A stretch of DNA of 64,000 nt from Cyanidioschyzon merolae (lineage: Eukaryota): NCBI GenBank assembly GCA_000091205.1, contig AP006492.2, one strand, 5' to 3'. Below, piece after piece: positions 1 through 40,321 of this stretch (position 1 is its first letter; the number at the start of each line of letters is the position of its first letter). The position numbers and the translations under genes were made by a program. The notes below the pieces were generated by a model. It saw nothing but the letters and a program-made list of their open reading frames with translations, had not been told where the DNA came from and did no database searches.

Positions 1-2250
1 GGAGACTCCGGCTCGTTCCATCTTCAGAAATGGAGCCTCGTGCGGGACCGTGTCAAAGGCCTTTTGAAAGTCGGTGAAGCATACGTAAGCTGGTTGTTGG
101 CCGCTAATGGAGCAACGTTGCACCCTTCAATGAGGGTCAGGGCATGGCTCATGCACTCCTCGTGGCTCCGGAATCCAGCCTGTTCTGGGACGAGGAACTT
201 GCGTTCCTGGAGGCCTCTCTGAGTCCGGTTCGTGGGAATGGCGCAAAGTAGCTTCATGATTGACGGGATGAGGCGCATAGTCCGGTAGTTGTTCATGTCT
301 GTGTGGGAGTCCTTTTTGAGGACCGGTACGACCTCGGCAGTCCTCCATACATCCGGGATGTACGCCTCTTCGAACATGCGTTGGATGAGCTCCACAAGGC
401 GTTTGCCTAAGCTTGTGTCAGATTCATCTGGTATTGATGGTGTCCCTGTTGTCCCGTCTTTTGGGGTCACCAGTTTCATCCACTCCGCAGGGATACCGTC
501 GATGCCAGGTGTTTTGCGGTTGCTTGAGCATAGCACGGTCCGAACAGATTCAGGCCAGAAGATTGGGTCGTTCCATTCCGGTACCGGTTCGAGGCGCGGT
601 AGTTCTGCAGCATATTGGTGCCAATAGATTCTGTCTTGGCAGTGCCCAGTTGCGTCTTCATGCAGCTCTGTGCCGTGGTCCGTCCAGGCCTCATTCACTG
701 AGGCACGCTCCGTCCTCAGCGCTTCCTCATAAACGACTGGTGTGAGCCCCAGGCACTTTTTTGGTGGGTCCAGTCTCGATCGAATGTAGCGCCAGGTCTC
801 ATCTTCGTTGGTGCTCTCTAGCATAGATTTCGCCAGGGAGGCGATTTTGCGGGTTCGATCCTCTCGTTTGTCTTCTCTGGAAAGTTTCTTCTTTCTTTTG
901 ATAGCTTCTTCATGTTGTGCCTGTAGCGCCGTTAGGACTGCCTTCGCTTCCTTGTCTCCGGCGTTGGCGCGTATGGCGGTGTGGTTGACGATCTGATAGA
1001 GTCGGTGGTGCTCGTCAATCCGGGTATTGGTACGTCGTTTCAGGCACTGAGGTTTGCAACTGTTGCGTTCTGGTGCAAGCAGTCCCAGCTCTCCGGCAAT
1101 CTTCTGATTCCCATCTACAAACTCGCGTGCCAATTGGTCTAAAGATTTGTATGCACGGCTTTTCGGATCTTCAGCGCTGTGAGTAGGTGACTTGGTTTGG
1201 CGACGGCTTTCTTGAGTTCCTGCTGGGGTGCTCTTTCGGGGACGACATGTGATGGGCTCGCTGGAGCCCCCGCCTGTGGGCTCGTTCGGGAGTTCTTCTT
1301 TCTATTCTTCTGTTTTTTTCTTGCTGGTCTACTTCTTCTTCGGGCTCTTTCCTGAGCTACATTCTCTGGTTATTTTGCATCTAGGTGGATCATGAGGTTT
1401 CTGTGTCTCCTTCTCCGTGTCTGGTTGGGTCTCTTTTCCTATTGTACAGTCCTCGACTTGTATCAGTTCTTCATTACTCTACTAGTAATTCGATATCTCG
1501 TAGTTCAATACCGAGGCGATCCCGCTAATATTCCATGATGCGAAACCTATCGAGTCGTAGCGCATAAGGGAATAGGAGTAACGCTGCGGTACTCGAGAGA
1601 TACGTTGTCGATTGAGATGCACCCTCCACGGGGTGTGTGAGAGCACATGCCACCAGTGCCTCCTGCATTCCAGTCGTTCACTGAGTGTCTGCCGCAGCGC
1701 TAGCGTAGAATCAGATGTACGCTAGTCAAGGTCGATTCGAATGCGACCTTTATCTTGCCCGACGCTTTAACCTCCCCTCAACAATTGGGAACAGTCTGCA
1801 AACCACCCTTTCAGCGGCTACGTATCCGCTCCCCAAACACATAGGCGGGCAAGCCGCTTATTCCAGCTTCGACCGCAAACATACTGCCAGCCGTCTTCAA
1901 AAGTCTCCGCCGAGACTTTTTCCAAAGTTGAGGTAGGTACCCAAGGTAGGAGATAAAACTGAGCCCGAGTCCGAGGATCGATCCAAGATTTGCGCCCGAA
2001 CCTGCAGCGTTGATTCGGGAGGGGCGGATGACTGATCAGGATTTTCGTCAACATTTTCTGGTGCTACTGCCGCCGCCCCTCCGTTCGTTGCGCGGTCAAG
2101 GTCCCTGGCGTGGGCTTCCTTCGCCGTCGCCCAAGCACCCCGCGTTAACCCACTTTCAGAGCTTCTCCGGAAAAACTAGACCTCTAAGGCGGGCGTGGTG
2201 TGTGGGTCTTTAAGATAGTTGTTCTTTAATAAATAGTTTGTGACTGGTTT
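1..2250 (-). mobile_element. LINE-like non-LTR retrotransposon, copy 1 (3' part lies beyond window start); RT ORF plus ~1.1 kb 5' leader
   Basis: Sequence 1..2250 is near-identical to 41141..43393 (copy 2), including the RT ORF and the long leader ending in '...taaatagtttg(t/c)gact(g/a)gtttgttttgtt'. Homology to copy 2 stops at ~2250. Confidence 0.6.
24..1133 (-). pseudogene. LINE reverse transcriptase ORF (partial; 1-nt indel near 130 shifts frame relative to copy 2)
   Basis: Translation carries RT motifs (GIDGIPAEW, VVPVLKKD, YRTMRLIPS...). Compared with the copy-2 ORF (40919..42274) it diverges after '...SHALTL' because of an indel. Confidence 0.55.
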
Positions 2251-2717
2251 GTTTTGTTATCGGTGTTTTTGTACCCGGCGTTTTGCTCACCACGACCAGA
2301 TCGACGCCGAGATATCTCGGAGATCGGCCAGTCTACTGACACGATGCGAATGCCGCCGTTGAATGGAAACGCGATCCTGATCAGTAGCGTGTTGTTCTAC
2401 TGGAAAAATTGGATTTCCGTTAAGGTCTTAGCAGAGTACAGTTTTTTAGTTCATTTTTCTTTCAAACCTCAAACAAGTGTGTTCAAGTTTTTTTTCGCAG
2501 TATATAACAGAAGCGTTCACAGAGCGTTGTTTTTCAAAAAAAAAACTAAAAAAGGAAAGCTATGAGAAAGCAAGTCCACGATCCTGGAGGCCCAGGGTCG
2601 CCGGCTGCCAGAAAAAAACGAAAAACAGTGCCGAGTCCAGAAGAAAAGGGAGAGAAGAAGAACCGAAAGGGGGAGGCCCTACGTTGAAGGCTGCAACAAA
2701 GACGACTTTACGACGAG

Positions 2718-4976
2718 ATGGTGGTGAAAACCTTCCTTCTTAAACATATCAAGGATCCGTGCAAGGAAAAGTTGCGAGACGCTATCAAAAAACGTGTCGA
2801 CTCGTACTCCAAGAGTATTGTCAAGGCGTCGTCAGTACTGATGCATTTGGTGAGGGAGATGTATCGCGACGTGACGCACATGGAAACAGTCGAGATTCCT
2901 GACGATTTTTTCGACAAGACGTTTATTCGTCACCTGATGCTTGGCACAGCGGAAGCGCTGAAGGAAAATATGCTAGTGCACGCCCTCCACGAAAACTTGG
3001 TGGAATTCCGCTTCGAAGGTAATCGATACAGGGGTGCCTCGGATATTTAGGCATACGGAGCGAAAAAGTACATCACGAGTCTGAAGAACCATTTGACAGT
3101 GAACCTCGAACGTTTTATGATACGCGCGGTGGGTACACTCTACCCGGGCATCTTTCGCAACGGAAAATGGGCGATTATCAATGGCATCATGAAAGATCGA
3201 AAGTATGAAGTTGAGATCGAGTTTGTCGATAAGAAGGCGTCACGCAGGAGCGCAAATGAAGCTTCTGTAATCCGTGCGGCTATCCAAGAGTATCGTGCAG
3301 TCCTGGGGCTGGCGAATTTGGCAGAAAATTTATCAGAGTTGAAAAAAGATAAGGAAAGATACTACCGCCTCATCCTGTGATATTTCGTGTTTCTGGACCG
3401 AGAGCTCGAACGCGAAGCGGAGATGAAGCTGAGTGAAGAGACAAATCAAGAGTGGGAGAGACGGAAGGCTTTCCTAATGGGTAAGCGCTTCAACGGCGTT
3501 CCAATGTGCAATATCAAGTCACATTTCGTGACTATCGATTCAGGCGTCCTTTACGGCATCATGAGGGAGATCTGTCCGGAGTTCGATGTGAGCAGGGAGG
3601 ACTTCATCGGTGAAAACCGGGAGACGTACTGGAAGAGTATCTTCGATTTCAAACGTCTCAAAGTCAGCAAACAAAAGGTATTTACTGGGTTGATCGAAAC
3701 CGATGGAGTAGCCACGTGTGTACTCTATCGGCGGTTGAAGAAAGATCGTCCAGTTCCGCCCTCGGCCGCGCCCGTCACGAGGGATGCAGAAAACAAAGAG
3801 GAGGATTCTGTGATGCAGGAGGTGGAGGATACCGAGTTTGTCGTTGACGTGACGAAGGATGAAGAAAACAAAGAGGAGCATCCTGCTACGCAGGAGGTGG
3901 AGGATAACGACCTTGTCGTTGACGTGGCGAAGGATGAAGATGAGAAGAAGGCGGATCCTTCGGCGCAGGAGGTGGAGAATAACGACTTTATGGTTGACGC
4001 GGCGAAGCATGAAGAAAACAAGGAGGCGGGTCCTGCGACGCAGGAGGTGCAGGAGAACGACTTGGTCGTTGGCCTTGACCCTGGGAGCACGACCATCCTA
4101 GCCATTGCTGCACCCAAGCGTGCGGAAGACGGTACTGACGGCAAATTACGTCAGAAAGACATGCGTGTGTTCAAGCTCTCGAATGCGAGATATTACCGGG
4201 AATCGGGAACCATGAATGCGAGGAAGAAAATTGAGACTTGGAATTCAGGAATAAAAGAGCACCTGGAAGCTATGAGCGAGGTGACGAGCCGAGGAGCGGA
4301 CTTTCGAGCTTTTCGGAAATTCATGGAAGTTCGTGTTGCTCATTGGGAGGCGCTGTTGGAGGAGTATACAAAGCCCGTGTGAGCTCGTCTGTGTATGAAT
4401 CTGTATTGTGGAAAGCAGCGTGCATTCGCGAACTTTTTCCATGAGTTGAGCGCCTCGAAAGAGGACAAGACTCAAAGGCTCGTCGTAGCGCACAGAGCGG
4501 TGCACTGGATGACCCAAAAAGGGACTCCGCCAGCTCCAACGACGAGAACGTACAAGGAGTGTGCACGGCGTTTTGTTACAATACCTGCAGACGAGTTCCG
4601 AACATCTTATACACACCATGAGCTGGGTTGTAAACTTCAGAGGGTCGAGATGAAAATGTGCCAGCGGAGCCCTAAGGACATAGCAAAGTACGGACCGCTG
4701 ACGGAGGAGCTAATGGAAAGGAGGGCGAAAGTTCGTGGACTCTTTGCATTAGTAAGTGCAACCAGTGATGGCAAGAAACGTATGGAGTTTGTGAACCGCG
4801 ACTTTAATGCTGCCATCAATATAACGAGATATGCGGTGCTGGAGACGAGACCTCCAGAGCAGACAAGAGAGCTCTTTGTTGAACAGTCACTAAAAGTTGA
4901 ACTATATGAGAAGAAATGGGAAGCAGTAGTGGATGGCCGTTCGAAAAAGACGGGGAGGCGTCTGCATGTTAGTTAA
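2718..4976 (+). pseudogene. Fanzor (eukaryotic TnpB / OrfB_IS605-like RuvC nuclease) ORF with three in-frame stops (TAG 3051, TGA 3381, TGA 4380)
   Basis: ORFs 2718..3050, 3093..3380, 3387..4382 and 4395..4976 are all in the same frame. Motifs: RuvC-I-like '[18 protein letters not shown]', 'IPADEFRTSYTHHELGC' (YTSQ-like plus degenerate zinc finger), and RuvC-III 'KRMEFVNRDFNAAINI' near 4780..4825. Confidence 0.55.
3780..4075 (+). repeat. ~72-nt tandem repeat (about 4 units) encoding acidic '[21 protein letters not shown]' inside Fanzor A, just upstream of RuvC-I
   Basis: Direct reading of protein 3387..4382. Copy B has 1 unit and copies C/D have 2. Confidence 0.6.
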
Positions 4977-5093
4977 TGACGTCTGCACTAGGGCGGGTTT
5001 CGCCGCCTCTACACCGCCGGTGACACCGTTTTTCTTTTGAAAGACGTTTGTTTCCAGGGGTGAAAGCGACAGAATCGGGACGTGCGTGCTGCC
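4977..5093 (+). ncRNA. Conserved structured non-coding 3' end of the Fanzor element (candidate omegaRNA scaffold / right end)
   Basis: 'ggcgggtttcgccgcc' hairpin, 'caccgccggtg' near-palindrome and the T-tract 'ccgtttttcttttg' are identical in copy B (reverse complement at 14707..14926) and partly conserved in C (26372..26463). Confidence 0.25.
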
Positions 5094-9599: not shown

Positions 9600-10560
9600 T
9601 CAAGAAGCCCGCCCGTTAGCAGTTGCGCGCAGAGCCGAAGCGCATCCTAGACTCTTTAGCATCAAATTCTGGAAGACCAGCATTGTTCACCAGCACGCTC
9701 GGAAAGTTGTTCCCGATGTATAGATACGGTGCTCCATTCTTGATGGATTGCTGAACCGACCCAAACCAATGCCTTGCTCCGGACGGAAATCCGCTGGTCT
9801 CTCTCCTCGCCACTGAAATCTTTTTTTCAAGGAAAGTCTTCAGCGTTTCTGCACAATGCGCTGACCAGGGACGAAACGATCGCCTCGAGCATTCTCACAA
9901 TACAAAGCCGCTGGACGCTCAGGAAGCATGAAACATTTCGGGATGTTGTTCGAGGCGGTCAAGTCTCTGTGCAGTACGTGCTTGTACGCATAATCGAGGA
10001 TGCAATCACAGCATAGCGAGCCACTCGATTTCAATTGCCCTCGCCGGCTGACGTTTGTTCCGCTTACCGCACACCATCTCGTGTATTCGTCAAGGTTTTA
10101 CGCTCCTGTTCTCGGCCAGTGTCAGCGTGCACCCCTGCTCTTTACCCGTGCATGTCAACATGAACGCATCAATAGGAAGCATCGGGATTGAATCGTGCTT
10201 TCGTTGGATACTCTCGTCAATGGAGCGGGAATGCAATTATTTGGAAGCTGCAGCACGACCAGCGCCGCAGAATACCGCCAAGGGTGCCAAGCATTGGTCA
10301 TTTTCATCTCATAGCGATTGAACAAGTACGCGAAAGCACGCTTCTTTCATCCGCACAACCGAATGCGCTTTTATGCACTCGCACCAAAGATGTTCCGCAT
10401 GAGCCATTCGGACATGCGTGGCCTCTCTTAAGCTTACGTTCAAGACATTCGCGTGTTTCAGACACGTTGCTCAAAGCGTCGACATTTGGCCATAAATCCG
10501 CCATTCCACGTGCTCGTATGCGTGCTGGCATCCATCGTGCCTGACTCTCGATGGTGCCGT
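9600..10560. repeat. Diverged paralogous segment (partner at 32260..32900); gene fragment or repeat family of unknown function
   Basis: Nucleotide similarity, e.g. 'gaaagtcttcag..tttgc.cacaatgc' and 'cttggacgctc...agca..aaac'. Translated + frames align ('ETI.S..S.WTL..H.T...V.RG......VLVR', 'TAHH'). Confidence 0.4.
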
Positions 10561-12062
10561 ACCCTGGAAAGTCATGTCTTATTGCATCTTCTGTCCAGAT
10601 CATCAGTTTTCGCACGTAGGTTTCTGTCGATAAATCCCCGAGGAATGTGAGAAGCTGGCATCCCTGCGTCCAGAACACCTATAAATCGTTGCCTGGTTAG
10701 CTCTGCCCAGGCGAGCGAAGCTTGGCGTGCCTTTCTCGTGGAAGACGCTGCGTCAACTTTCATGATGTCCTGCACGCTGCTTTTTGGTAGATTTTGCCCG
10801 TCGCTTTGTCTAGGTAGCGATGCCCTGAAACCCGATGCAGACTGGTCATAGCGCTCTGGCAGGTTGTCATTCCTGGCCTTACACTTCATTGTTCAGCTGC
10901 ATCTTCTTCTGTTTGGATTGCTTGCTTTTACTCCTTCTCCTCTACTTGATGTGCTTCCATAGTTGTGATTGTTATACTTCGCACCCGTTTCCTCTCGGAA
11001 CTTAGACGTACAGGGTAGACGGTTGCACTGGAACCCGTCTTTTTCATCTATGAGCGGATCTAGCGTTCCTCAGGTTCCATGTCGTTAACTCCGCCATGGC
11101 GAGCACGCCCACGGACTCTCGCGCACCTGTACGCTCGCTCTGGTGCACGAGCACACAACCAATGGTTCAGCCCAGAGCGGACAACGGTAGATAACGACGT
11201 GTCGAAGCGCCTATTTGGCCCAGATGCGAACGGCCCGTGTACTGATCCGCCCGCGTAAAACTGGCGTTTGAGAACAGAGAAGACGTCTTTGACTCCACCG
11301 AACCAGGACAGCTGGACTGGAACAAAGAGCAGTTCGACGTACCGATAAGCTGCAAAGTCCCGGGCTGCTTTTGAGCAGCGCAAGGCGGCGGCGTCGAAGA
11401 GCAGGGCACAAGTACATGGTAAGGAGAATTCATGGGATGCCTCGACGAAGAATGAAGTGATGAATGATGACGTCCGTTTTGCGATTCGTAGGCGGTCACA
11501 CAATCGCATTCCCTCCAGGGATGATGTTGTTATCAAGAGGCTCGCTTGTGTCTTTTCTACGAACGGCGGTCTGCCGCTCTCTGAGTACTAACGTACGAAT
11601 CTGCCATTCCTCCCGAATGCCGTTTCATCGAGTGAGACGAATGCCCGTGCTTCCTTTCATTTGCATTCGCGTTTCACGACAAAGTCAATGGTGCGTTGTT
11701 CAGCGCGCGATGCTATTCGATAGAATCGCGCATTTTTCTTTATCCATCCGTTTCTCTTGATTGCCGATTATATATGAAAGTCACAGAAGCTTCGTCCCCA
11801 ATAGGTTCTTCAGTATGGTTTCTTATAAACCGCATTTAGTGGAATGGATGAACCTTTAGACAGAGTTTGACAAGTTCTTTCTAAGGCGGACGATGTTCAG
11901 GATAAGAACTACGCACAGAGTGGTGTATCCACTTGCCCACAGTGGCATAACGAACTTGCAAAAGTAAATCCGTTTCCTCCAAGCCAGCGCCGACTGCGCA
12001 GTATCCTTCCGCATCATTTCCGCGTCTACTAGATACATGCTATCTTTGGAACCGTTCAATGA

Positions 12063-12081
12063 AAACAAACAAACAAACAAA
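12063..12081. repeat. (AAAC)n microsatellite
   Basis: aaacaaacaaacaaacaaa. Confidence 0.8.
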
Positions 12082-12245
12082 GCGAAGAAGGATGCACAGA
12101 TACAGACGTCCCAGAATGCACTGACCTGGGTTTGATCTCCTTGCGCGCACCCTGGTCACGACGCCTGGCGGTATGCCGCTGGTGCTTCAGCTGCTTTCTG
12201 GTGTCGCAGCGGACCGACGGATGCGTCGGTGACACCACCCGAACG

Positions 12246-14671: not shown

Positions 14672-17205
14672 TATGCGTGTGTGTTTGCACGTGCACGCCC
14701 GACACCGCCAAACGTCTTTCAAAAGAAAAACGGTGTCACCGGCGGTGTAGAGGCGGCGAAACCCGCCTTAGACTAGACGTCATTAACTAACTTGCAGACG
14801 CCTCCCCGTCTTTTTCGACCGGCCACCCACTACTGCTTCCCATTTCTTCTCATATAGTTCCACTTTCAGTGACTGTCCAACAAAGAGCTCTCTTGTCTGC
14901 TCTGGAGGTCTTGTCTCCAGCACCGCTCATTTCCTTATATTGATGGCAGCATTAAAGTCGCGGTTCACAAACTCCATACGTTTCTTGCCATCACTGGTTG
15001 CACTTACTAATGCAAAGAGTCCACGAACTTTCGCCCTCCTTTCCATTAGCTCCTCCGTCAGCGGTCCGTACTTTGCTATGTCCTTAGGGCTCCGCTGGCA
15101 CATTTTCATCTCGACCCTCTGAAGTTTACAACCCAGCTCATGGTGTGTATAAGATGTTCGGAACTCGTCTGCAGGTATTGTAACAAAACGCCGTGCACAC
15201 TCCTTGTACGTTCTCGTCGTTGGAGCTGGCGGAGTCCCTTTTTGGGTCATCCAGTGCACCGCTCTGTGCGCTACGACGAGCCTTTGAGTCTTGTCCTCTT
15301 TCGAGGCGCTCAACTCATGGAAAAAGTTCGCGAATGCACGCTGCTTTCCACAATACAGATTCATACACAGACGAGCTCACATGGGCTTTGTATACTCCTC
15401 CCACAGCGCCTCCCAATGAGCAACACGAACTTCCATGAATTTCCGAAAAGCTGTAAAGTCCGCTCCTCGGCTCGTCACCTCGCTCATAGCTTCCAGGTGC
15501 TCTTTCATTCCTGAATTCCACGTCTCAGTTTTCTTCCTCGCATTCATGGTTCCCGATTCCCGGTAATATCTCGCATTCGAGAGCTTGAACACACGCATGT
15601 CTTTCTGACGTAATTTGCCGTCAGTACCGTCTTCCGCACGCTTGGGTGCAGCAAGGGCTAGGATGTTCGTGCTCCCAGGGTCAAGGCCAACGACCAAGTC
15701 GTTCTCCTGCACCTCCTGCGTCGCAGGAACTGTCTCCTTGTTTTCTCCATGCTTCGTCACGGGCGAAGCCGAAGGCATGATAGGATGATCCGCATTCAAG
15801 CGCCGACACTGTAAGCATATGGATACCCCATCGATATGGATGATCCCTGTGAATGCTTTTTTCGTGCTCGTATTGAGACGTTTGAAATAGAAGATAGTCT
15901 TCCAATGAGTCTCCCGGTTATCGCCGGTGAACTCTATCTGCCTTACATCGAATTCCAGACTGATCTCCATCATGATGCCGTAAAGGACTCTGGAGTCGAT
16001 CGTCACGAAGCATGACTTGACGTTGCACAACTGAAAGACGTTGAAGCACTTGCCCTGAAGCGCAGTCTTCCGTTTCACCGACTCTTCACGTTTTCCCCGC
16101 TCAGCTCCATCTACGCCTTGCGTTCGAATTCTCGGTTCAGGAGCACGATATAGCGCAGGATGAGGGGATAACATCTTTTTTCATATCTGATACCCTCTCT
16201 GCTCGATCGACCTGCCCCAAGACTGCACGATGCTCTTTAATAGCCGGACGGATTACAGAAGCTTCGTTTCTGCTTCGGCGTGACGTCTTCTCGTCGAAAA
16301 ATTCGATCTGCTGTTCGTGCTGGCGATAAGTCCTGATTTCATTGATGCTAGCCCACATCCCCTGGCGAGAGAGGTCGGGGTTCAGCGCAAACATAGTGCG
16401 TATCATGAAACGTTCGAAGTTCACGATCATATGGTTCTTCAGGTCCGTGAGGTACTTAATTGCCCCGCAGGTGTATATATTCGAGTCACGCTCGTGTCGA
16501 GTGCCGTCGAAGCGGAATTTGGAGCGATTTGCATGGAGGGCATGCGGTCGCTCAGTTTCCGTCGACGTTTCCTCTGTGCCAAGCCTCAGGTGACGAATAA
16601 AGGCCTGGTCGAAAAATTCTTCCGGAACCTGGACTGTTTTCATGTGCGTCACGTCCCGAAACATCTCCTTCACCAAATGCACTAGCCATGACGAAGCCTT
16701 TATAAAACTCATAGAGTACGACTCGACGCAGTTTCTAATGGCGTCTCGTAACTTTTCCTCGTACGGATCCTTGATATGTCGACGAAGACAGGCTTTCGCC
16801 ACCATCTCGTCGTACTGTCATCTTGCTCGCAGCCTTTGTCGTAGGGCCCCCTGCCTCAGCTTTTTCGTCTTTTCCAGTTCCTTTTTGCTCTGGCTGCCGG
16901 CGACTACAGCCCTCAAAGATCCTCCACTTTCATTTCCATAACTCTTCTTTTTTTATGTTTTTGAGCAAAAACACACTTTGAACGCTTCTGCTATAAACCG
17001 CGAATAGTCACTTGAATCCACTCCCATGAGGGTCAAAGCACAATTGAACTGAAAAACTCTACCTTGCTACGACTTGAAAGCAAATACAACTTGCACGTTA
17101 GAACTACAGATCAACGAATAGTCAGGATTGCGTTCCCTTTCAACGGCGATACGCGCGTCGTGTCTCATGGATGCCAGAGCTCTCGGGTGCGCGTATCGGC
17201 CACGC
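14672..17205 (-). mobile_element. Fanzor/TnpB-like element, copy B (inverted relative to A; boundaries +/- 40 bp)
   Basis: 3' segment 14707..14926 is the exact reverse complement of A 4977..5052. The 5' leader 16806..17205 is homologous to A 2285..2717 and to the C/D leaders. Confidence 0.5.
14927..16805 (-). pseudogene. Fanzor (TnpB-like) ORF, copy B (frameshift near 16150, in-frame TGA near 15366, extra stop after 'NAAINI')
   Basis: Proteins from 14927..15364, 15377..16174 and 16137..16805 match the A fragments. Same RuvC-I '[17 protein letters not shown]' and RuvC-III 'FVNRDFNAAINI'. Confidence 0.55.
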
Positions 17206-17910
17206 TATGTAGAACAAAGAACAGAGACTCACTACTAACTCGCAACGAGATAACAATTTCTTTTCCCCACTATGATAAATGTTAAAAGTGGGCAACGGTT
17301 TCCGCACTGTCGAACGTTTACCTTCTCGGCGGAAGGTCCCACGAGCCAGACGAGTCTGCCGGGCTAGTGCTTCGTGCACAAGCGAGCGACGAGTTCAGTG
17401 GCGAGACCTGAGCAGCTCGTCCGCAACGTAGTTTATTCTGGGACTAGGATCGGGTAGCCTGCGTCTGGGCGTCACTCTTGTTGCAGTGGCCTCCTAGTAT
17501 ATCAATTCGGATTGCCGCCTGTACTAGGTCCGTCTGCGCTGCTTGCAGGCTCCCAGAATGATTATGAATCCCAGATCCCCATCAGGTGAAGCTTTCCTCG
17601 ATCCGACGCCCTCTGTGGTTTGGCAACGCCGTTCTGCCTCCCTGCAGCATCTGCCCAGAGGTTTAGGCGCCATCGCCGATGCTCAAAGCAGGCAATCGGC
17701 ACACGATAGAACATACGAAACGACCAGTACATCCGAGAGAAAGTATAAGTAATGGAACTAGAAGACAGGGCACAGCATAATAAGTGTCTTCCCGTTTGCC
17801 TGTGACGATCCCGCAATCTGGGATCCATGGACCATAGAGACAATGTACAACCATGAAAAATACGGCCCAAGAGGCAGCCAGCGCATCCTTTTTGACCGTT
17901 ATGTACATAA

Positions 17911-25195: not shown

Positions 25196-26404
25196 CTAGG
25201 TCGCGTAGAGTACTTCAGCAGGCGAGTAATCGTCAAAAGCTCGCGGTGAGCGCCGATGCTCCAGTCGCAAGTGCTGGTGCACGTCCGGCCATACCTGCAC
25301 ACAATTTGGTCCATACGCTTCAGCAACAGCATGAACAGCTGTGTAGTACACCTGGTCAGTACGTACGAAGCACTTTTCACGGTTCAGGTGCGGTTTGCAA
25401 ACGCGATCAACGGGAGCGGCAGCACCTAGCCATGGCCTCCGGAGCGACGTCTGAGAGGCTTCGCTCCAGTTCAGAGCCGGTTCAATAACGTCGTAACGCC
25501 ACCAGCAAGGCACTCGAACACTGCACAGGTTAATCGGTAGTTGTCTTTCAATGTCATCCAGCACATGCAGTACCGGGCTTTCCGGATTAGAGCGCAGCGC
25601 ATTTTCGCTCGGAACGATGTACTCGTCCACATCTGCGAAAAGAATCCATTTGAATATGCCGCGATTCCGCCACAAACAATCGTTCATGGCTGCAATCTGA
25701 ACATGATTCCAGTGCACGCCCTTTGGTGGACGAAATGGCCACGCTATGATCGATACATTCGCAGGCACATCGGCGAGTCGCTCCGTCAATTCATCCCTAA
25801 GCTCCATTATTCTGGAACCACAGGCATCCGGCTCATTGAGATAGATGAAAAAATTCCGAATGCCGACCCTTGTATGGTGTATGATCCACGACAGGAGGAG
25901 GCTCTGCGAAACGGAGCGTTCTACGTTGTTCGGCCGACGGTTCTCCTGAGACTCAGGGCGCAACCGCAGCATCGTCCAGGCAGCGAGATGTAACTGCTCG
26001 TTTGGAGCAGTTCCTTCGAAAGCATCGGCGTCTGGTTTGCACTGCAGAATGAGCACTTCGTTTTGCGGGTCTAGGCGTGGCGGGAGAACGCCACCGGGCG
26101 CACACCACGTCGCTGCTGCTTGCTCTACAGTGCGCCGGTCCAGGGGCCCGCGAGCGCTCAAGACCAGCGTTTCAAGACCGTCACGTGACCGGAACCTGTC
26201 AAGGACGCGTAGCTTCGCGTAGGAGGTGATTCCTGTAGTCTCCTGGGTAAAACGGCATGCTTCTAGTATGGAAAGCGTGCGCTCGAGAGCATCGCCCGAC
26301 CTGGAGTGAAGTAATACCAGGAGCGTCAGCAGCAGGACGCAACCGGACAGCAGTCTTCTCGGGAAACCTGTTCCAGACGCACCTCCGACACCAACAACAA
26401 ACAT
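25196..26404 (-). CDS. GT92 (DUF23) family glycosyltransferase, type II membrane topology
   Basis: N-terminal hydrophobic anchor 'LLSGCVLLLTLLVLL'. GT92-like block 'WPFRPPKGVHWNHVQIAAMNDCLWRNRGIFKWILFADVDEYIVP'. First ATG at 26404 (ORF-track start 26482 is TTG). Confidence 0.5.
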   Translation of the reverse strand: MFVVGVGGASGTGFPRRLLSGCVLLLTLLVLLHSRSGDALERTLSILEACRFTQETTGITSYAKLRVLDRFRSRDGLETLVLSARGPLDRRTVEQAAATWCAPGGVLPPRLDPQNEVLILQCKPDADAFEGTAPNEQLHLAAWTMLRLRPESQENRRPNNVERSVSQSLLLSWIIHHTRVGIRNFFIYLNEPDACGSRIMELRDELTERLADVPANVSIIAWPFRPPKGVHWNHVQIAAMNDCLWRNRGIFKWILFADVDEYIVPSENALRSNPESPVLHVLDDIERQLPINLCSVRVPCWWRYDVIEPALNWSEASQTSLRRPWLGAAAPVDRVCKPHLNREKCFVRTDQVYYTAVHAVAEAYGPNCVQVWPDVHQHLRLEHRRSPRAFDDYSPAEVLYAT

Positions 26405-28995
26405 CTCCCAAAAGAAAAACGTTGTGACCGCCAGTGGTGTACAGTAGTGGCGAGTGCTCCGCCTTAGACTAGACGTCGCCAACTGACGAGCTGATGCCTT
26501 CCAGTCTTTTTCGACCGGCCACCTACAACGGCTTCCAATTTTTTCTCATATAATCCCACTTTGAGTGGTTGTCCCTTAAAATTCTCTCTTGACAGCTGTG
26601 GAGGTTTTTTCTCCATCACCGCGCATCTCCTGATATTGATGGCGGTGTTAAAATCTCGGTTCACAAACTCCATACGTTTCTCGCCATTGTTGGTACTCAC
26701 CAATGCAAGCAATCCTCGAACTTTCGCCATCCTTTCCATCTGCTCCTCCGTCAGCGGTCCGTATTTTCTTATCCTCAGGGCTCCTCATGCACATTCCTAC
26801 CTCCACTCTCTGAAGTAGACACCCCAGCTCATGGTGTGTATACGACGTTCGAAACTCACCTACAGGTATTGTTACAAAGCGCCTTGCGCACTCCTTATAC
26901 GCACTCGTCGTTGGAGCTGGCGTAGTTCCTTTTTGGGTCTTCCAGCGCCCTGCTCCGTATGCTACTACGAGCCTCTGACTTTTTTTATCCTCCTTCAAGG
27001 CGCTCATCTGATTGAAAACGTTCGCAAATGCCCGCTGCCTCTCTCCGTATAGACTCATACGCAGACGAGCCCACCGGGGCATGGTATACTCCTTCCACAG
27101 TGCGTCCCAATGGGCAACGCGAACTTCCATGAATTTCCGAAAAGCAGTAAAGTCCGCTCCTCAGCTCGTGATCTCCCTCATAGCTTCGAGGTGATCCTTC
27201 ATTCCTGCATTCCACCTCTCATTTGTCTTCCTTGCATTCATTATATCCGATTCTAGACAGTATCTCGCTCTCGAGAACCTCAAAAGACGCATGTCTTTCT
27301 GAGGTAAGTTGCCGTCAGTACCATCATCCGCACGCTTGGGAGCAGCGATGGTTATGATATTCGTATTCCCAGGGTCCGCGCCGACGACAAAGTCGTTATC
27401 TTGCACCTCCTGCGTCGCAAGATCCGCCTCCTTCTTTTCTGCATTCTTCGCCGCGCCAACGAAAGTCGTTATCCTGCACCTCCTGTGCCGCAGGATCCGC
27501 CTCCTTCTCACATTCATGGTTCGTCACGGGCGCAGCCGAGGGCGGGACTGGACGATCTCTCTTCAACCGCCGATAGTGTATACACAAGGCTACTCCATCG
27601 GTATCGATCATCCCAGTGAGTACCTTTTGTTTGCTCACCCTCAGACGTTTGAAATCGAAGATATTCTTCCAGAACGTCTCCCGGTTTTCACCGTAGAATT
27701 CCTCCCTGCTAACATCGAACTCCGGACTGATCTCCTTCATGATGCCATGAAGGACTGCGGAGTCGATACTCACAAAATGTGACTTGATGGTGCACATCGG
27801 AACGATGTAGAAGCGCTTACCCATCAGGAAAGCCTTCCGTCTGTCCCAGTCTTCAGTTTTCCCCACTCAGCTTCATTTCTGCCTTGCGTTCGAGTTCTCG
27901 GTCCAGAAACACGAAATAACATAGGATGAGGCGATAGTATCTTCCCTTATCTTTTTCAACGCTGATATCTTGTCTGTTGGATTCGGCAGCCCCATGACTG
28001 CACGGTGCTCTTGTATATCCGCACGGATGACGGAGACCTTATTCGTGCTCTGGTTTGACGCCTTCTTGTCGACAAATTCGACGTCATCTTCACGCTTGCG
28101 ATCGTTCGTGATGCCATTGATAATCGCTGATATTCCTTTGGGACAGATGCCCGGGTAGAGTGCAAACAAGGCGCGTATCATGTAACGTTCGAGGTTCACT
28201 GTCAAATTGTTCTTCAGGTTCGCGGTATACTTTATCGCCCCGTATATGTAAATACCCCGGTCACCGCTTTATCGATTACTCTCGAGGCGGAATTCCGCCA
28301 AGTTTTCGTGGAGGGCATGCACTGGCTCATTTTCCCCCGCGCTTACTCTGTACCAAGCATCAGCTGACGAATAAACGTCGCATCGAAAACGCCGTCCGGG
28401 AACCTCGACCGTTTCCATGTGCGTCACTTCGCGATACATCTCCCTCGCCAAATGCATCAGTCCTGACGAGGCCTTGACAATACTCTTGGAGTACGAGTCG
28501 ATACGTTTTTCGATAGCGTTTCGCTAGTGTTCCCTGTAAGGATCCTTGATATGTTTAAGAAGAAAGGTTTTCACCAGCATCTCGTTGTACGGTTGTAGTT
28601 CTTGCGGCCATCGACTTGGGATATCCCCTTTTTGCGTTTTCTTCTTATGCTGTTCTTCTGAACTCGGTACTGTTTTTTTCTTTTCTGGCAGCCAGCGACA
28701 CTGGGGCGTCAGGATCGCCGACTTGCTTTTTCATAACATCCTTTTTTTGTTTTTTTTTGAAAAGAACGCTCCATCAACGCCTCTGATATAGACCGCTAAA
28801 TATCACTTGGATAAACTAAATTGAGCGTTGAAACATAATTGACCTGAAAAGTGTACTCTGTTATGACTTTAACGAATATACAACTTGTAATTGAGAGCAA
28901 CACGCTCAAGATCGCGATCGCGTTTCCCTTCACCAACGACATGCGCGTGGTGTCTCATACCTGCCAGATATGGAGGTGCGCGTATCGACCGCTAT
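26372..28995 (-). mobile_element. Fanzor/TnpB-like element, copy C (near-identical to copy D)
   Basis: ORF fragments 26464..26739, 26648..27130, 27161..27517, 27396..27866, 27873..28205 and 28269..28457 match the Fanzor protein. 5' leader ends ~28995 where LINE sequence begins. Confidence 0.5.
26464..28583 (-). pseudogene. Fanzor (TnpB-like) ORF, copy C (multiple frameshifts and stops)
   Basis: '[18 protein letters not shown]' (RuvC-I), 'EFRTSYTHHELGC', 'RMEFVNRDFNTAINI' (RuvC-III). Has TGG (W) where A/B have the TGA stop. Confidence 0.55.
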
Positions 28996-30380
28996 AATCC
29001 CTTGGCACACGGACTCGAACTCCAAATACCCTCGACAGAAGGTATAGCAGCAGGCTGCCGGGTACGTATATGGGCCAAAGGGCCCGCCATGCGCACCTCT
29101 TTGAGTCGGATTTTCATGCAGACCCCTACGCACCTCAAGAACACTTGGACGAAATTGACGCAGATTGGGCTGAAGCGCCTATTAGACGAACATACGCTCC
29201 CCAATCGTTCCCCAGGAATGTACAAGGCTCCCGCCGCCTCAAGCGAACGGTCCAAACAACAATATGGGAACGTAGACACGGAACCAGTCGCGCCAGTAAC
29301 GCCGGCTTGATCCTATACCGGAGCTACAACCTAGCATACACATGCAAGTACTGGTGGGAGGCGCTGGAATTCCCGGGACTTGCTCGAGGTACCCAGTGGC
29401 TCGCCAAAATCCGCGTTGGTGGCTTCTGGCTAGCGGCACCGGCTCTAAGCCGTATAGGGACACTGGAATCGCACTGGGAGTCACACTGTCCCTGCTATCG
29501 AGACGATAACCCCGAGACGCTGACATATTTAGGCTTACAGTGCCCGCGCTGGAAGCAGGAGCGCAGCGAGCTCCTTGAAGGACAGCAGCAGCTGGGCATC
29601 ACCATGATATCCGAGGGCCGGACACTCACTTTGAGAGCAGCACTGGCAACTGATGGTCCGCTAACAGATCCTCAGCGCTCATTAGTGGCGAACAAACTCA
29701 CATGCTACCTTCCAAGCGGAAGGTCCAGCGGATCGGATGCGCACACGGGCCCAGTGCTCTCTGCGCCTACCTTCTGTATGGGTGTCAAACACAAACCCGC
29801 ATTGCCAACCGACGACAACGCATTCCATGCATGATCACGAAAGAGAGAGGCGGCTCCCACGATATATCCTAACAGTCAAGTTTCTCCAGCGTGTCGAGCA
29901 GCGAAGACAAGCCTGCATCCGCAGACTGTCCGAGCACACACTGACGACGAGACCCGATTCTACGTCGGGTGAAGCGCACCTTGAGCCGACGCCCTCTGGG
30001 GTATAGAAAAGCCGTTCTGTCTCCATGATGCATCTGTACCAAAGGTAAAGACGCTATTGCGGACAATTAGGACAGGTTCTGGGCACACGATAGGACGTAT
30101 GAGATGACCAGAATATCCGAGATGAAGGATAGGTAATTTGACGTGGAGGTACGGGGGTTGATGGATACCCCACCGCGCACTGTAAAAAAATAACGCAAAA
30201 AGTAAGAAAAGAAAAATGCGCACAATCGGAGAACGCTGGCCCAAGTAAACGCGTTGTCCGTGAAAAAGGACTCATCGATGCCGGCAGGCGTGCAGGCAAT
30301 CAGGCAGGCGGCAATCTCAGCCACAGAATGCGACGGCGCGAGCGCACGTCCTTCCCGGGGCAATAAGCGGCGCCTTTCGT
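28975..30380 (+). mobile_element. LINE-like retrotransposon, copy 3 (5'-truncated: end of RT ORF, C-terminal Cys/His ORF, ~300-nt 3' UTR)
   Basis: 28891..29834 ORFs match copy 2 39551..40400 in inverse orientation. 30067..30363 matches 39076..39318 (3' UTR). Confidence 0.6.
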
Positions 30381-31896: not shown

Positions 31897-32259
31897 TTGG
31901 TCTTTGTTTGGGACGATCTCGCTCGATGCGGGGAATCATGTCGAGTCACGAGAGTTTCCAGCAGAGCACGTCTGGTTGCACCGGAATCTCAGGATTGTCT
32001 CGAGCACAGCGACAGGATTTTCTGCATCATTTGGATGTTGGTTCGTTTGGCGCATAAACGACTTGATGAGCAAATGCACCGTCACACCAGTATCCAAGTT
32101 AGTGTCTGACCAATCAGCAGGGACAGGAGCAAACGGGCGCGTCGTTCGTCAACCGCGTGCATCACCGGCTCTCCTCAACCGAAAACATGCATAAGCCGCA
32201 AATGCACTATAGAATGTCTTACTGCACATTGGAATACCGTGGTTGTTCCCAAATTGCCC

Positions 32260-32900
32260 AGCGGAATCGTACACTTTGTCCATAAACGGTGCTCTGGCCT
32301 CGCTGGATTGCTGAAACGTACCATATCAGTGTCTTGCGCTTGGTTGTAATCCCGTACCCTCCTTCATAATCGCTGATTTCTTTCATCGAAAGTCTTCAGA
32401 ATTTGCCCACAATGCCCTCATGGAATACGAAACGATTTTCCCGAAACATCGCTCAATAGAAAGTTCTTGGACGCTCCACGAGCACAAAACGCTTCCGCAT
32501 GTTAATCGCGGCGTTGAACTCAAGGAACACGAAGTGCTCGTGCGCACCGTTGCGGGTGGAATCTCATCATGGTACACTCTACGTTTTCGATTGTCTCACC
32601 ATTTGACGATAGCTCAGCATACTGCACACCATCCGATACATCCGGTTCTGTGCCACGCTGTTTTCATCGAACACTTTCAGCGCACAAGTGTGCTATTGAT
32701 GTGTTTTTGCCATCCTGACATATCGATGGGATTCGTATCGAATCGATTCCAGCACTTTTTCTCGTTAGCGTCGAGGAGGCAGGGTTGCTGCATTTGGGCA
32801 CCGCAGCTCGTTCGGCGTCCTAGACTAGCACGAAACGACGCTACTTTCCAACCCAATGAACAAGTAAGAAAGTGCGCGTTACATTCTGCCACATAACCTG
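32260..32900. repeat. Diverged paralogous segment (partner of 9600..10560)
   Basis: See 9600..10560. Confidence 0.4.
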
Positions 32901-35078
32901 GTTCATCTCCGACTCCAGCGCTCACTCATTTCCTCCCGCAAAAAGCCTTCGCTTGAACCATTTGGATGCTCGTGTTCTTTCTGATTGAGGCGTACAAAGC
33001 ACAACGTCCTGCTCGATGTGGTACTCATTGCATCGAGCTGGGTCCCGAAGCTGCCACCTCACGTGTTCGTATGGCGCCTGGTATCCATCATATTCGACTG
33101 TCGAAGACGTCGAGCCGTGGGAAAGTAAGGATGTATTGAAAGCCTGTCTCGAGCATCATTTCCGTTGTCTCAAGAAAAACTGGATCGGAACTGTTCCGGA
33201 GAATTGTGGACAGCTGGCAGCCGTGTGTCCGAAACGCCTACGAGCATTTGCTTGTTGAGGGACGTTACAGCGAAATATGCTTGGGGGGCATCCCTCGAGT
33301 AAGAGGGAACGCGATCCCTGCCAGTGCCCCGCTTCTCATGTTTGAGAGGATTCCCGCGATTGATACGTTTTCAGACGGAGACCTTGCCAAGGATTTCAGA
33401 CCGATTTTTCCATTCCAACTCTTTGCGCTCTTTGTGTGTCCTCGCCTCTTTTTGAAACAATTATCCCCATCTTAGGCTGGTGGGTTCTTCCGCTCCTCCG
33501 TTACTTGGTGGAGTATCATGTATGTAGTCGCGATGCTCCATATTCGTTTTCGCGTGATTTAGAGGTACAGGCTCTACGATGCCATTAAAGCTGACGTTTT
33601 CTGCCTACGTTGCTATTAGTTCTTCGATAAAGTTTGGCTATCTGTTGCGCTGCGAGCTCGCTGATGGACAGAGAGGTGCCCTTCGGTTCGCTCCCGCGCA
33701 ACAGAAGAGGAGCAACGCAGCAGTTCACTACTTGTGACATCACAGAACGACTAGTCGAAGGACGAATGTGCGCGCTTCAGCGTCGCAGATGCGAACGATT
33801 CTTTTATGTATCTGTGTGCGTAAGCATTGCATCGGACAACAAGGAGGACGCCTCTGACTGGAATCAGCCCGGGGCAAATGGATGGCATGATGCGCAGCTC
33901 AACACACGTTTCAGCTGCATTCTTGTTGAAGGCTTTTGAGCAACAAAGTGCGAATTCGTCTGACAGCAGGACAGAAAATTTTGTGGAAAAGAAGCCGCGA
34001 AGACTGCTTCATTGAAGAATGAGATAACGAATGATTACGATCGGTCAGCGTTTTGCAGACGAACGCACTATAGGATTGCCGCTAGAGCTGGTGTTGTCTG
34101 AATGCTCGCCCACGTTTTCTTTACGAACAGCGGTCTGCTTATCTTTTTGGCATCAATGTACATTTCTACCATTTTTCTTGAATACAAACGTATCCTTTGC
34201 GATGCACACATGGCCCTGATGTGATGAAGATTCGCGTTTTGTTAAAAACGCGATAGTATGTTGTCCAACGCGCGACGGTCCCGCATAGAGGCTTTGGTTT
34301 TCCTTAGTTCTTCCGCGTCGCTTTACTGCCGGTCCCATCATCGATACGGAAACATCAAATTCCGGAGATTTTTGGTATATTTTTCATTGAATTCGCATGG
34401 AGCGGAACATATTGACGAAGAGGAAGTGGTGCAGATAGTGTTTTATGAATTATGTTTTGGTTGAATGCGGTTCGGGATATTGACCACGAGAAGGCCTGTC
34501 CATCCAGATGCTGACTACATAGTAACTGACTCGCTCTTGTAAGGTCGTTTGTTGGCGGGCTAGTTGTGACTACATTGGGTCTTTCTGCATCCTCTATCGC
34601 GTTTATGATACACATTCCTTCTGTTCAATTTCTGCGACAGAAACAAACGAAAACAAAAAAGCCTCACAGACTTGGATATTCCAGAAATCAGTGCTCCGAG
34701 CATCGGGCATCGACGAACAGAGGCATTGCGGCGTGCATCAGTCGTGGTTACTGCACACAAGCCCTCAGGTTCCAGTTGGATTATTTTGTCTGATGCGCAG
34801 AAGCAGCTGGTTTCAGCTGTATCCTGGAAACAAGTACTTCTGTCGTAGAAGACTTCCACAGAAAGAAGGAGCGAGAAGTGCTAGCCGCCTGGATCCGTCA
34901 GTGCTCCAAACAGTGTCGCCCATCACGTCGTGCGTTGTCCACAAAAACTCCGCCCATTCCTCGTTTACGAAGCCATTGGGCGCTTCCCGCAAAACGAAGG
35001 GATTTTTCTCAATGCCGCGACCAATGAAAAAGCGTTTTTCAATTGGGTAGCTTTTTACAAGAGTTACGGAGATCTCGT

Positions 35079-39110: not shown

Positions 39111-39550
39111 CGGCATGTTTTTCATTAACAACGCGTTTACTTGGGCCAGCGTTCTCCGATTGTGCGCATTTTTCTTTTCTTACTTTTTGCGTTATTTTTT
39201 TACAGTGCGCGGTGGGGTATCCATCAACCCCCGTACCTCCACGTCACATTACCTATACTTCATCTCGGATATTCTGGTCATCTCATACGTCCTATCGTGT
39301 GCCCAGAACCTGTCCTAATTGTCCGCAATAGCGTCTTTACCTTTGGTACAGATGCATCATGGAGACAGAACGGCTTTTCTATACCACAAAGGGCGTCGGC
39401 TCAAGGTGCGCTTCACCCGACGTAGAATCGGGTCTCGTTGTCAGTGTGTGCTCGGACAGTCTGCGGATGCAGGCTTGTCTTCGCTGCTCGACACGCTGGA
39501 GAAACTTGACTGTTAGGATATATCGTGGGAGCCGCCTCTCTCTTTCGAGA

Positions 39551-40321
39551 TCATGCATGGAATGCGTTGTCGTCGGTTGGCAATGCGGGTTTGTGTTTGA
39601 CACCCATACAGAAGGTAGGCGCAGAGAGCACTGGGCCCGTGTGCGCATCCGATCCGCTGGACCTTCCGCCTAGAAGGTAGCACGTGAGTTTGTTCGCCAC
39701 TAATGAGCGCTGAGGCTCCGTTAGCGGACCATCAGTTGCCAGTGCTGCTCTCAAAGTGAGTGTCCGGCCCTCGGCTATCACGGTGATGCTCAGCTGCTGC
39801 TGTCCTGCAAGGAGCTCGCTGCGCTCCTGCTTCGAGCGCGGGCACTGTAAGCCTAAATATGTCAGCGTCTCCGGGTTATCGTTTCCGCAGCAGGAACAGT
39901 GTGACTCCCAGTGCGATTCCAGTGTCCCTATACGGCTTAGAGCCCGTGCTGGTAGCCAGAAGCCACCAACGCGGATTTTCGCGAGCCACTGGGTACCTCG
40001 AGCAAGCCCCGGAAATTCCAGCACCTCCCACCAGTACTTGCATGTGTATGCTAGGTTGTAGTTCCGGTATAGAGTCAAGCCGGCGTTACTGGCGCGACTG
40101 GTTCCGTGTCTACGTTCCCATATTGTTGTTTGGACCGTTCGCTTGAGGCGGCGGGAGCCTTGTACATTCCTGGGGATCGATTGGGGAGCGTGTTGTCTCC
40201 TAAGAGGCGCTTCAGCCCAATCTGCGTCGATTTCATCCAAGTGTTCTTGCGGTGCGTTCGGGTCTGCATGAAAATCCGACTCAAAGAGGTGCGCGTGGCG
40301 GGCCCTTTGGCCCGTATACAT
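39551..40321 (-). CDS. LINE C-terminal ORF with Cys/His motif, overlapping the RT ORF end in another frame
   Basis: 'ESHWESHCSCCGNDNPETLTYLGLQCP'. The same overlap arrangement is present in copy 3 (29070..29834 vs 28891..29310). Confidence 0.5.
   Translation of the reverse strand: MYTGQRARHAHLFESDFHADPNAPQEHLDEIDADWAEAPLRRQHAPQSIPRNVQGSRRLKRTVQTTIWERRHGTSRASNAGLTLYRNYNLAYTCKYWWEVLEFPGLARGTQWLAKIRVGGFWLPARALSRIGTLESHWESHCSCCGNDNPETLTYLGLQCPRSKQERSELLAGQQQLSITVIAEGRTLTLRAALATDGPLTEPQRSLVANKLTCYLLGGRSSGSDAHTGPVLSAPTFCMGVKHKPALPTDDNAFHA

Follow-up and report, generated by a model that had tools for sequence, protein, structure and literature searches.

The four related repeats of the window (the whole 64,000-nucleotide stretch that was analysed, which exact protein matches assign to genes CMJ300C-CMJ311C on chromosome 10 of Cyanidioschyzon merolae 10D) are almost certainly decayed copies of CMe-1/CMe-1A, a transposable element family of this organism that carries a Fanzor1 gene and lacks both terminal inverted repeats (TIRs) and a transposase of its own. 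CMe-1A was described by Bao & Jurka 2013, Mobile DNA 4:12 (PMC3627910) as a C. merolae transposon with a Fanzor1 nuclease gene, a genomic copy number of ~150 and a consensus of 3,169 bp, the opening 635 bp of which are identical to TE-N2_CMe; the phylogeny published there puts CMe-1 within Fanzor1. Our reference sequences, the consensus of CMe-1A and the protein of CMe-1 (CMe-1p), are those published there. In blastn comparisons DNA identity between the consensus and the four copies was 83.7-87.4% over nearly the whole consensus (A 85-87%; B 83.7% over 3,158 bp; C and D 83-86% each), and A, B, C and D each share at least 80% nucleotide identity, the level taken to define membership, over most of the consensus. 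In tblastn CMe-1p matched the copies at 62-83% per segment, with its residues 1-729 covering copy A. CMe-1 and these copies are thus the same family, with no difference in kind. The earlier note had deduced a TnpB-descended protein of the Fanzor1 type, and this identification is correct, being borne out by the consensus match and by the profile and structural matches described below; the novelty that it implied does not stand, as the family has been in print since 2013 and no new family is involved.

Self-BLAST and a four-way alignment of the copies showed that the proposed fourfold unit of ~2.5-2.8 kb is real, with a length of ~2.5-3.1 kb and positions close to those first assigned (Table 1). 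For copy B the unit itself stood but its limit did not: at position 17205 the common core stops, and the copy runs on to 17830 through the 635-bp TE-N2 leader. This leader is absent from A, C and D, which begin at consensus ~645-700 and differ in this respect from the published CMe-1A. As in the latter, the only gene is a single Fanzor1 ORF, while a second ORF and TIRs are likewise absent: no other sizeable ORF with family matches was found in the unit, so that the Fanzor1 ORF is its sole ORF, as anticipated in the claim that no other transposase is present, and no inverted pair with arms at both termini was found in A, B or C. Further departures from the published description are the existence of two alternative terminal hairpins, a 3' end that is probably two bases (TT) longer, and the state of the window copies, which are all dead and partly mosaic. 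Copies A, C and D have LINE sequence next to their 5' ends, copy C being abutted by a 5'-truncated inverted LINE and copy D by a LINE 3' tail. Two older Fanzor1-like relics lie elsewhere within the same window.

Table 1. Positions of the CMe-1 copies in the window and of features of copies A and B
Feature	Position	Strand	Remarks
Copy A	2296-5048	+	short form without TE-N2 leader; consensus ~645/687-3169 plus TT; pseudogene
Copy B	14711-17830	-	essentially full-length CMe-1A, consensus 24-3169; pseudogene
TE-N2 leader of copy B	17206-17830	-	635-bp part of the published CMe-1A consensus
Copy C	26400-28994	-	short form, type-1 3' hairpin; pseudogene
Copy D	36584-39117	-	short form, type-2 3' hairpin; pseudogene
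Fanzor1 reading frame of copy A	2562-4976	+	single frame with 4 premature stops; from tblastn with CMe-1p
75-bp tandem repeat, 4 units	3773-4071	+	found by TRF; acidic 25-aa repeat just N-terminal of the RuvC-I strand
RuvC-I motif GLDPGS	4071-4088	+	catalytic Asp in DPG; aligned with SpuFz1 IDPN
RuvC-II motif ADEFRTS	4587-4607	+	C-terminally shifted, Fanzor-type catalytic Glu; aligned with SpuFz1 LDEYKTS
RuvC-III motif NRDFNAAINI	4794-4823	+	catalytic Asp; aligned with SpuFz1 NRDM
3'-terminal hairpin CGTTTTTC-TTTT-GAAAGACG, then TT	5027-5048	+	right end of copy A

An intact member of the family would encode a protein of ~735 aa that starts K/R-rich (AARKKRKT) and is helical in its N-terminal half. 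Its RuvC nuclease would be split, with catalytic residues at three places: Asp within DPG, Glu at its shifted position within DEFRTS, and Asp within NRDFNAAINI. The three motifs do occur in copy A in the order reported for them. For RuvC-I, copies A and B have GLDPGS, copy C has the GADPGN of the consensus, and D has a mutated GAVPGN; DEFRTS, in which [TS][TS] comes after the shifted RuvC-II Glu, is present in all copies and relatives; and for RuvC-III, A and B have the NRDFNAAIN of the consensus, whereas C and D have NRDFNTAIN. The full signature DPG...E-x-x-[TS][TS]...RDxxxxxN is found in the consensus, in repaired copy A and in diverged relatives. The segment that had been equated with the TnpB zinc finger lacks the four zinc-binding Cys; it is where the RuvC-II Glu and the TS motif lie. 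Using the Fanzor feature definitions (DPG, shifted Glu and zinc finger regular expression) of bioRxiv 10.1101/2023.08.09.552727, no canonical C4 zinc finger ([CH]xxC...C..., between RuvC-II and RuvC-III) was matched in the consensus, repaired A, P0001, P0145 or P0051-54; members of the CMe-1 clade have 0-3 Cys in this segment, and the expression fits only 18 representative relatives among the closest 149. The acidic tandem repeat varies in copy number between family members, copy A having units beyond those of the consensus in the form of a 225-bp in-frame insertion. Across the RuvC half of ~75 copies, codon positions 1 and 2 are conserved at 0.88-0.94, as against 0.78-0.82 at the third position, a pattern in the sequences that points to selection on the protein.

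Homology of this protein to known nucleases is visible by profile-level and fold-level searches only. Single-sequence searches of Pfam, NCBIfam and PDB with repaired copy A yielded nothing significant, and this includes the search against Pfam OrfB_IS605 / OrfB_Zn_ribbon that the earlier note had recommended. Matches to PF07282 in the homologues were sub-threshold (12-14 bits, with a cut-off of 26.3), and PF26935.1, a precomputed tag on many of them, was unreported by Pfam at E<=1 for P0001 and P0002. These negative results, together with the missing zinc finger, are what could be said for an accidental resemblance of the motifs to TnpB in a repeat that encodes some unrelated repeated protein. 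Against this, a family profile built from five sequences established significant homology to an experimentally validated Fanzor1: it recovered 8GKH, the structure of Spizellomyces punctatus Fanzor1 (SpuFz1; Saito et al. 2023, PMC10432273), as the sole PDB match at E<=10, with E=1.1e-11 and all three catalytic motifs aligned. Similarly, a Foldseek search with an AF2 model returned 7 significant matches (E 2e-9 to 7e-7), all of them Fanzor cryo-EM structures, with the next match at E=0.1; the model, computed from a 17-sequence alignment, has pLDDT <50 throughout the RuvC half, and its TM-scores to the Fanzor structures are 0.26-0.42. The published phylogeny of CMe-1 (PMC3627910) speaks in the same direction, as do the 2,105 representative relatives recovered at E<=1e-10, with the D-E-D signature in 127 of the top 149. 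The search for relatives found 4,114 of them. A second homologue round with the profile recovered the same family again and nothing further, and no viral relatives were found. The profile match to SpuFz1 and the Foldseek result thus refute a chance origin of the motifs, the probability of which is practically negligible.

All four copies are pseudogenes, and nothing functional is present in the window. The frame of copy A starts farther upstream than had been supposed, at ATG 2562. Of the one long frame of ~750 codons expected in each copy, a single frame is seen in A, with premature stops at consensus codons 42, 163, 273 and 532, while B, C and D are frameshifted. Copy B has 5 frameshifts and 6 premature stops; C and D have ~7 and ~6 internal frameshifting indels, respectively, of which four are common to both, and have all 4 of their premature stops in common; and in D the RuvC-I Asp is replaced by Val. 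Copy A keeps the D, E and D residues of its RuvC domain and has AHRAVHW in place of AYGAGRW. Stop-codon reassignment was rejected as an account of the in-frame stops of A, some of which are TAG and others TGA; it is also contradicted by the long normal ORFs of neighbouring genes and by the sense codons that other copies have at these places. Among 71 related metagenome loci none has a complete ATG-to-stop ORF, L001 carrying one internal stop. According to Bao & Jurka 2013, however, the family does include some copies with an uninterrupted ORF and an intact D-E-D.

The earlier note had read the family as recently active from its internal similarities, a reading under which functional or near-functional Fanzor genes might be present in the window. 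The reported identity of C and D above 95% was confirmed at 95.9% over 2.5 kb, and that of A and B holds for the 3' halves (97.3% by self-BLAST, 4003-5050 against 15756-14709) but not for the 5' halves, which are merely 72.6% identical. This similarity over 2.5 kb and 1 kb, and the single frame and three catalytic residues of copy A, would be in keeping with recent activity. However, each of the four carries several stops, several frameshifts or both, and the copies diverge by 13-16% from the consensus; the four frameshifts and four stops shared by C and D, and the TGA at codon 532 shared by A and B, imply that the source DNA was already dead. Because these inactivating lesions are shared, the near-identity of A/B and C/D is ascribed to gene conversion or duplication of already dead DNA. 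Moreover, orthologous copies with the same junctions are present in wild strains of 87-93% identity, and the insertions are therefore old. Recent activity, which we consider very improbable, is refuted for these four copies by the stops, the frameshifts and the shared lesions.

Most copies of the element have a terminal hairpin, for which 34 distinct stems were found. It is strand-specific, its folding energy being -9.9 kcal/mol on the sense strand against -5.5 kcal/mol on the antisense strand (39/41 termini). In silico, the ~62-nt 3' UTR folds into hairpins on the sense strand only, the last of which stops exactly at the boundary ...GGCG-TT, which is probably the end of the element; TT occupies flank positions +1/+2 in 34/40 and 37/40 cases, respectively. 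Beyond it the 3' flanks are G/T-rich and triplet-like. At the other end there are at least five alternative 5' leaders, and the 5' starts are bunched at consensus 645-689; solo 3' fragments also occur. Some copies have a 5' hairpin, GCGCTC-GGT-GAGCGC, where the core begins, but most do not, and a search for a pair of asymmetric terminal inverted repeats (ATIRs) found none. The sequence conservation of the 3' UTR is 0.82, no better than that of synonymous sites; third-codon conservation does not rise toward the 3' end of the ORF, so that there is no synonymous-site sign of an omega-RNA overlapping it, and Rfam and tRNA scans were empty.

By homology with SpuFz1, GtFz1 and PpFz, the protein would bind an omega-RNA transcribed from the right (3') end of the element, and the nuclease would cut DNA matching a guide read from the adjoining flank, beside a short TAM. 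The junction of scaffold and guide would fall at ...GGCG-TT, where the last hairpin ends, and guided cutting would help the element to persist. As the unit lacks a transposase, the element is taken to have been moved in trans. A single-strand, rolling-circle or HUH-type mechanism (Helitron2- or IS200/IS605-like), acting in a one-ended manner, is tentatively favoured, short of an even chance, because of the fixed hairpin-bearing 3' end, the alternative 5' leaders, the solo 3' fragments and the absence of TIRs. Several of the same features could be explained if CMe-1 had instead been spread by the reverse transcriptase of the neighbouring LINE, through retroposition of the Fanzor mRNA or of LINE read-through transcripts and with no DNA transposase. 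Such a process would account for the LINE sequence at the 5' ends of A, C and D, for the same junction of a LINE 3' tail with the CMe-1 core in D and four metagenome paralogues, for the fixed 3' end with variable 5' starts and solo 3' fragments, for the lack of TIRs, and for the G/T-rich triplet-like 3' flanks, which resemble some retroelement tails. However, the LINE 3' end (...GTCCGTGAAAAA) agrees with CMe-1 neither in sequence nor in a terminal hairpin or G/T-rich tail, poly-A is absent, and the 5' starts are tight, whereas a retroposed family would give a continuous truncation series. Furthermore, the LINE pieces lie in both orientations relative to CMe-1, so that clustering of transposable elements in a gene-dense genome fits better than co-mobilisation. 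Since the 3' ends of the two elements differ, LINE-mediated retroposition is regarded as improbable. A more specific version of the rolling-circle reading, which is unlikely in its entirety, would make CMe-1 the representative of a large subgroup of Fanzor1 in which the zinc finger is degenerate; the hairpin would serve both as transposition stop and as last stem of the guide scaffold, insertion would take place 5' of G/T-rich, A-poor sequence, and one-ended rolling-circle-like spread would take up alternative 5' leaders, including LINE tails. If it were true, the G/T-rich flank would be the natural guide, and the family would be a compact Fanzor that has no zinc finger and comes from a thermo-acidophilic host.

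C. merolae grows at ~42-45 C and pH 1.5-2.5, and an intact CMe-1 protein is for this reason a candidate heat-tolerant, zinc-finger-free Fanzor. The window has no working copy to offer, and the discovery value of the four repeats is small, given that the 2013 paper (PMC3627910) had already described the family with its placement in Fanzor1, the number of copies and the absence of TIRs, and that the biochemical role of Fanzor1 was demonstrated in 2023. What is contributed here is the probable end ...GGCG-TT, the sense-strand terminal hairpin, the G/T-rich 3' flanks, the variety of 5' leaders and the two relics; the end features, namely the hairpin, TT and flank, indicate where the guide RNA and TAM are to be sought.

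Among known systems, CRe-1/2/3 of Chlamydomonas are Helitron2-borne Fanzor1 elements (Bao & Jurka 2013, PMC3627910). Like CMe-1, they are non-autonomous, lack classical TIRs, have one Fanzor1 ORF and end in a 3'-terminal hairpin, with 5' heterogeneity or an over-abundance of 3' ends. CMe-1 differs in that its ORF is intronless, its ends have no established likeness to any known Helitron end, and a 5' hairpin or ATIR is inconsistent; we know of no RepHel source for it. With bacterial TnpB (IS200/IS605, IS607, e.g. ISDra2) it shares the split RuvC D-E-D and the C-terminal RD..NAA.NI, as well as carriage on a mobile element with a right end from which the guide RNA should come, a role that is predicted in CMe-1. 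In contrast to those systems, the CMe-1 unit has no TnpA (Y1 HUH or serine recombinase), and its protein is ~2x the size, with a long N-terminal half, falls below threshold for Pfam OrfB_IS605 / Cas12f1-like_TNB (formerly OrfB_Zn_ribbon), and has its RuvC-II Glu in the shifted position of Fanzors. SpuFz1, the best structural match in Foldseek, is only ~13-15% identical to CMe-1. Its NUC domain contains a CCCC zinc finger, where the CMe-1 clade has 0-3 Cys, while the acidic 25-aa tandem repeat before RuvC-I is a feature of CMe-1; the two proteins are nevertheless homologous over ~350 residues, a stretch that takes in the DPG-type RuvC-I strand, the RuvC-II Glu at its shifted position with TS after it, and the RD of RuvC-III.

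The four repeats A to D of the window are indeed copies of one unit, as borne out by self-BLAST and a four-way alignment, and they belong to a family that is already known. CMe-1A is the sole Fanzor1 family listed for C. merolae (Bao & Jurka 2013, PMC3627910), where some 150 copies each share ~80% identity with a consensus of 3,169 bp; it encodes a 734-aa single-exon protein (CMe-1p), lacks TIRs, has no determinable TSDs, and the 5' 635 bp of its consensus is another repeat, TE-N2_CMe. The consensus DNA and protein were taken from the supplements of that article and aligned to the window; the copies align to the published consensus (see table), and the finding is thus a rediscovery. Exact look-ups of nine ORFs identified CMJ300C, CMJ302C, CMJ309C, CMJ311C and neighbours on chromosome 10 of strain 10D, and by Pfam the genes between the repeats are ordinary housekeeping genes (citrate synthase, p24/GOLD, SURP, FAA hydrolase, GT92, PGK, RNase PH, dTDP-sugar enzymes, FTR1 and Rpn13).

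Features of the window and their counterparts in the CMe-1A consensus
Feature	Window	Consensus	DNA identity to consensus
Copy A	2338-5046 (+)	687-3169	85-87%
Copy B	14713-17830 (-)	24-3169	83.7%
Copy C	26409-28992 (-)	649-3162	83-86%
Copy D	36616-39112 (-)	703-3137	83-86%
Near-identical 3' halves, A vs B	4003-5050 vs 14709-15756		
75-bp tandem repeat	3773-4071		
T-run/A-run element	2529-2546	~875-900	
Terminal hairpins, C (type 1) vs D (type 2)	26400-26423 vs 36584-36612		
Fanzor1-like relics	9633-12123 (-), 32194-34693 (-)		
LINE pieces	1-2258, 29003-30267 (+), 39118-43399 (-)		
TE-N2/LINE 3' UTR similarity	29953-30151 (-), 39234-39443 (+), 17582-17754	86-293	
Tandem array	44990-50080		
ORF filled by the array	45261-50789 (+)		

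The earlier note's observation is largely correct, including its TnpB/Fanzor identification and the three motifs it named, all present in the order claimed. Repaired copy A as a single query matched nothing in Pfam, which that note had proposed as a check, nor in NCBIfam or PDB sequences, and the NRDxNAAxNI motif of the homologues matches PF07282 only below threshold. Database searches recovered many relatives from hot-spring metagenomes, four relatives of ~32% identity and P0001, a relative whose 752-aa frame is uninterrupted. At E<=10 a profile of the latter five had one match among PDB sequences, the Spizellomyces punctatus Fanzor1 SpuFz1 (8GKH; E=1.1e-11), pairing DPG with IDPN, vDEfRT with LDEYKTS and NRDlNAA with NRDM. 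AF2 modelled the N-terminal half of P0001 well but the RuvC half poorly (pLDDT <50), too poorly for catalytic geometry to be judged; nevertheless, the seven significant Foldseek matches of the model in PDB (E 2e-9 to 7e-7, the next at E=0.1) are all Fanzor structures (SpuFz, GtFz, PpFz). Many of the database relatives P0001-P0050 carry a precomputed Pfam tag, PF26935.1, which the Pfam-A search did not report.

The single long frame ascribed to each copy stands for copy A, albeit with in-frame stops, whereas in B, C and D it is spread over several frames. In copy A there are four premature stops and no frameshift, and a 75-bp repeat has expanded in frame by 225 bp; copy B combines five frameshifts with six premature stops; and copies C and D have about seven and about six internal frameshifting indels respectively, of which four are common to both, as are all four premature stops, with D having also lost the RuvC-I Asp. 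The 75-bp repeat codes for an acidic 25-aa unit that duplicates the residues leading into the RuvC-I strand (QEV.DNDxVV), and varies from about 1 to 4 units across window copies and metagenome loci.

An identity above 95% had been noted for both pairs and taken as a sign of recent activity. It holds for C/D (95.9%); for A/B it holds in the 3' halves (97.3%) but not in the 5' halves (72.6%). The 97.3% stretch ends at the element end, and within it lie two lesions common to A and B, a TGA at codon 532 and AYGAGRW>AHRAVHW. The two copies lie 10 kb apart in inverted orientation; this stretch is likely to be a gene-conversion tract between dead copies. C and D differ in their 3' termini (hairpin type 1 vs type 2), which is a further sign of mosaicism. 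Wild strains, 87-93% identical to 10D, carry orthologous copies with the same junctions. Given the shared lesions, the A/B mosaic and the differing C/D termini, the high similarity reflects copying or conversion of dead DNA; it does not show recent activity, and the window copies are relics. Across ~75 copies, third codon positions in the RuvC half are markedly less conserved (0.78-0.82) than first and second positions (0.88-0.94), which indicates purifying selection on the source genes, in agreement with the 2013 remark that some CMe-1A copies remain intact (PMC3627910). A complete ATG-to-stop ORF was found in none of 71 related loci; one metagenome locus, L001, has one stop.

The window also holds a second Fanzor1-like element in two ancient, heavily decayed copies, whose mutual identity is 57% over ~2.5 kb. 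Remnants of its protein, among them HRDLTASNNI and EFNAAINMRKRFVLVERP, give 24-45% matches to CMe-1p/P0145. Bao & Jurka name just one C. merolae Fanzor family. Three pieces of a LINE-like retroelement with RVT_1 (95-97% mutual identity) adjoin the 5' ends of A, C and D in differing orientations, and the metagenome paralogues L012, L015, L018 and L029 show the same junction of LINE tail and CMe-1. About 200 bp of the TE-N2 leader is ~75% identical, antisense, to the LINE 3' UTR; this similarity suggests that TE-N2_CMe is a LINE-derived, SINE-like element joined head-to-head to the Fanzor core. An ORF of 1,842 codons, without a Pfam match, is filled by a degenerate tandem array of ~5 kb with periods of 66/90/144/180/252 bp; the opposite strand also has long ORFs.

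Published Fanzor omega-RNAs arise from the transposon right end, overlapping the ORF in some cases and not in others. The ~62-nt 3' UTR with its hairpins is the sole predicted candidate source in CMe-1; Rfam searches returned no match, and towards the end of the ORF synonymous sites show no unusual conservation. Some ~750 bp upstream from full copies, loci L003 (923-1018) and L034 (1234-1329) carry solo 3' ends of ~96 nt, in which the final 34 nt of the ORF are followed by the 3' UTR with its hairpins. These solo ends resemble either the 'ghost loci' mentioned for Spizellomyces Fanzor, which hold a guide RNA only, or internal ends from end bypass. A T-run/A-run element, GTTTTTCAAAAAAAAAAC, directly precedes the Fanzor ATG; it is both similar and complementary to part of the sequence of the 3'-terminal hairpin.

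CMe-1 departs from the published signature of Fanzor1, DPG-x-E-x6-[CH]xxC-x-C-x-RDxxxxxN (bioRxiv 10.1101/2023.08.09.552727), solely in lacking the zinc-finger cysteines; DPG...E[FY]x[TS][TS]...RDxxxxxN is retained. An exhaustive profile search gave 4,114 representative relatives, and among the best 149 of these the triad signature is kept in 127 but the zinc-finger pattern in only 18, which points to CMe-1 as a member of a large zinc-finger-poor Fanzor1 subgroup, unlike SpuFz1 and ISDra2 TnpB with their CCCC fingers.

The copies end in either ...GGCGGCAGCGTTTTTCTTTTGAAAGGCG or ...GGCGTCGTTCGACTTTCGAACGGCG, both forming a hairpin that reaches to the final base and no further; 34 distinct stems occur, often lengthened by AACG...CGTT. 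Of 40 independent flanks, 34 have T as the first base after the end and 37 have T as the second, and the ~20 nt beyond are rich in G/T and poor in A (0.67 vs 0.50, p=6e-8, inflated because the copies are related). Owing to G.U wobbles the hairpin is far more stable in sense (-9.9 kcal/mol) than in antisense orientation (-5.5 kcal/mol; 39/41, with p-values likewise inflated by relatedness). On the 5' side, no fewer than five different leaders are joined to a core that begins at consensus ~645; solo 3' fragments occur, no TIRs were found in CMe-1, its 5' hairpin is inconsistent among copies, and the LINE 3' end is unlike its own. Taken together, these features favour movement in trans by a single-strand, one-ended mechanism over retroposition, and such Helitron2- or IS200/605-like mobilisation, which we infer for CMe-1, is that described for the Fanzor elements of Chlamydomonas.
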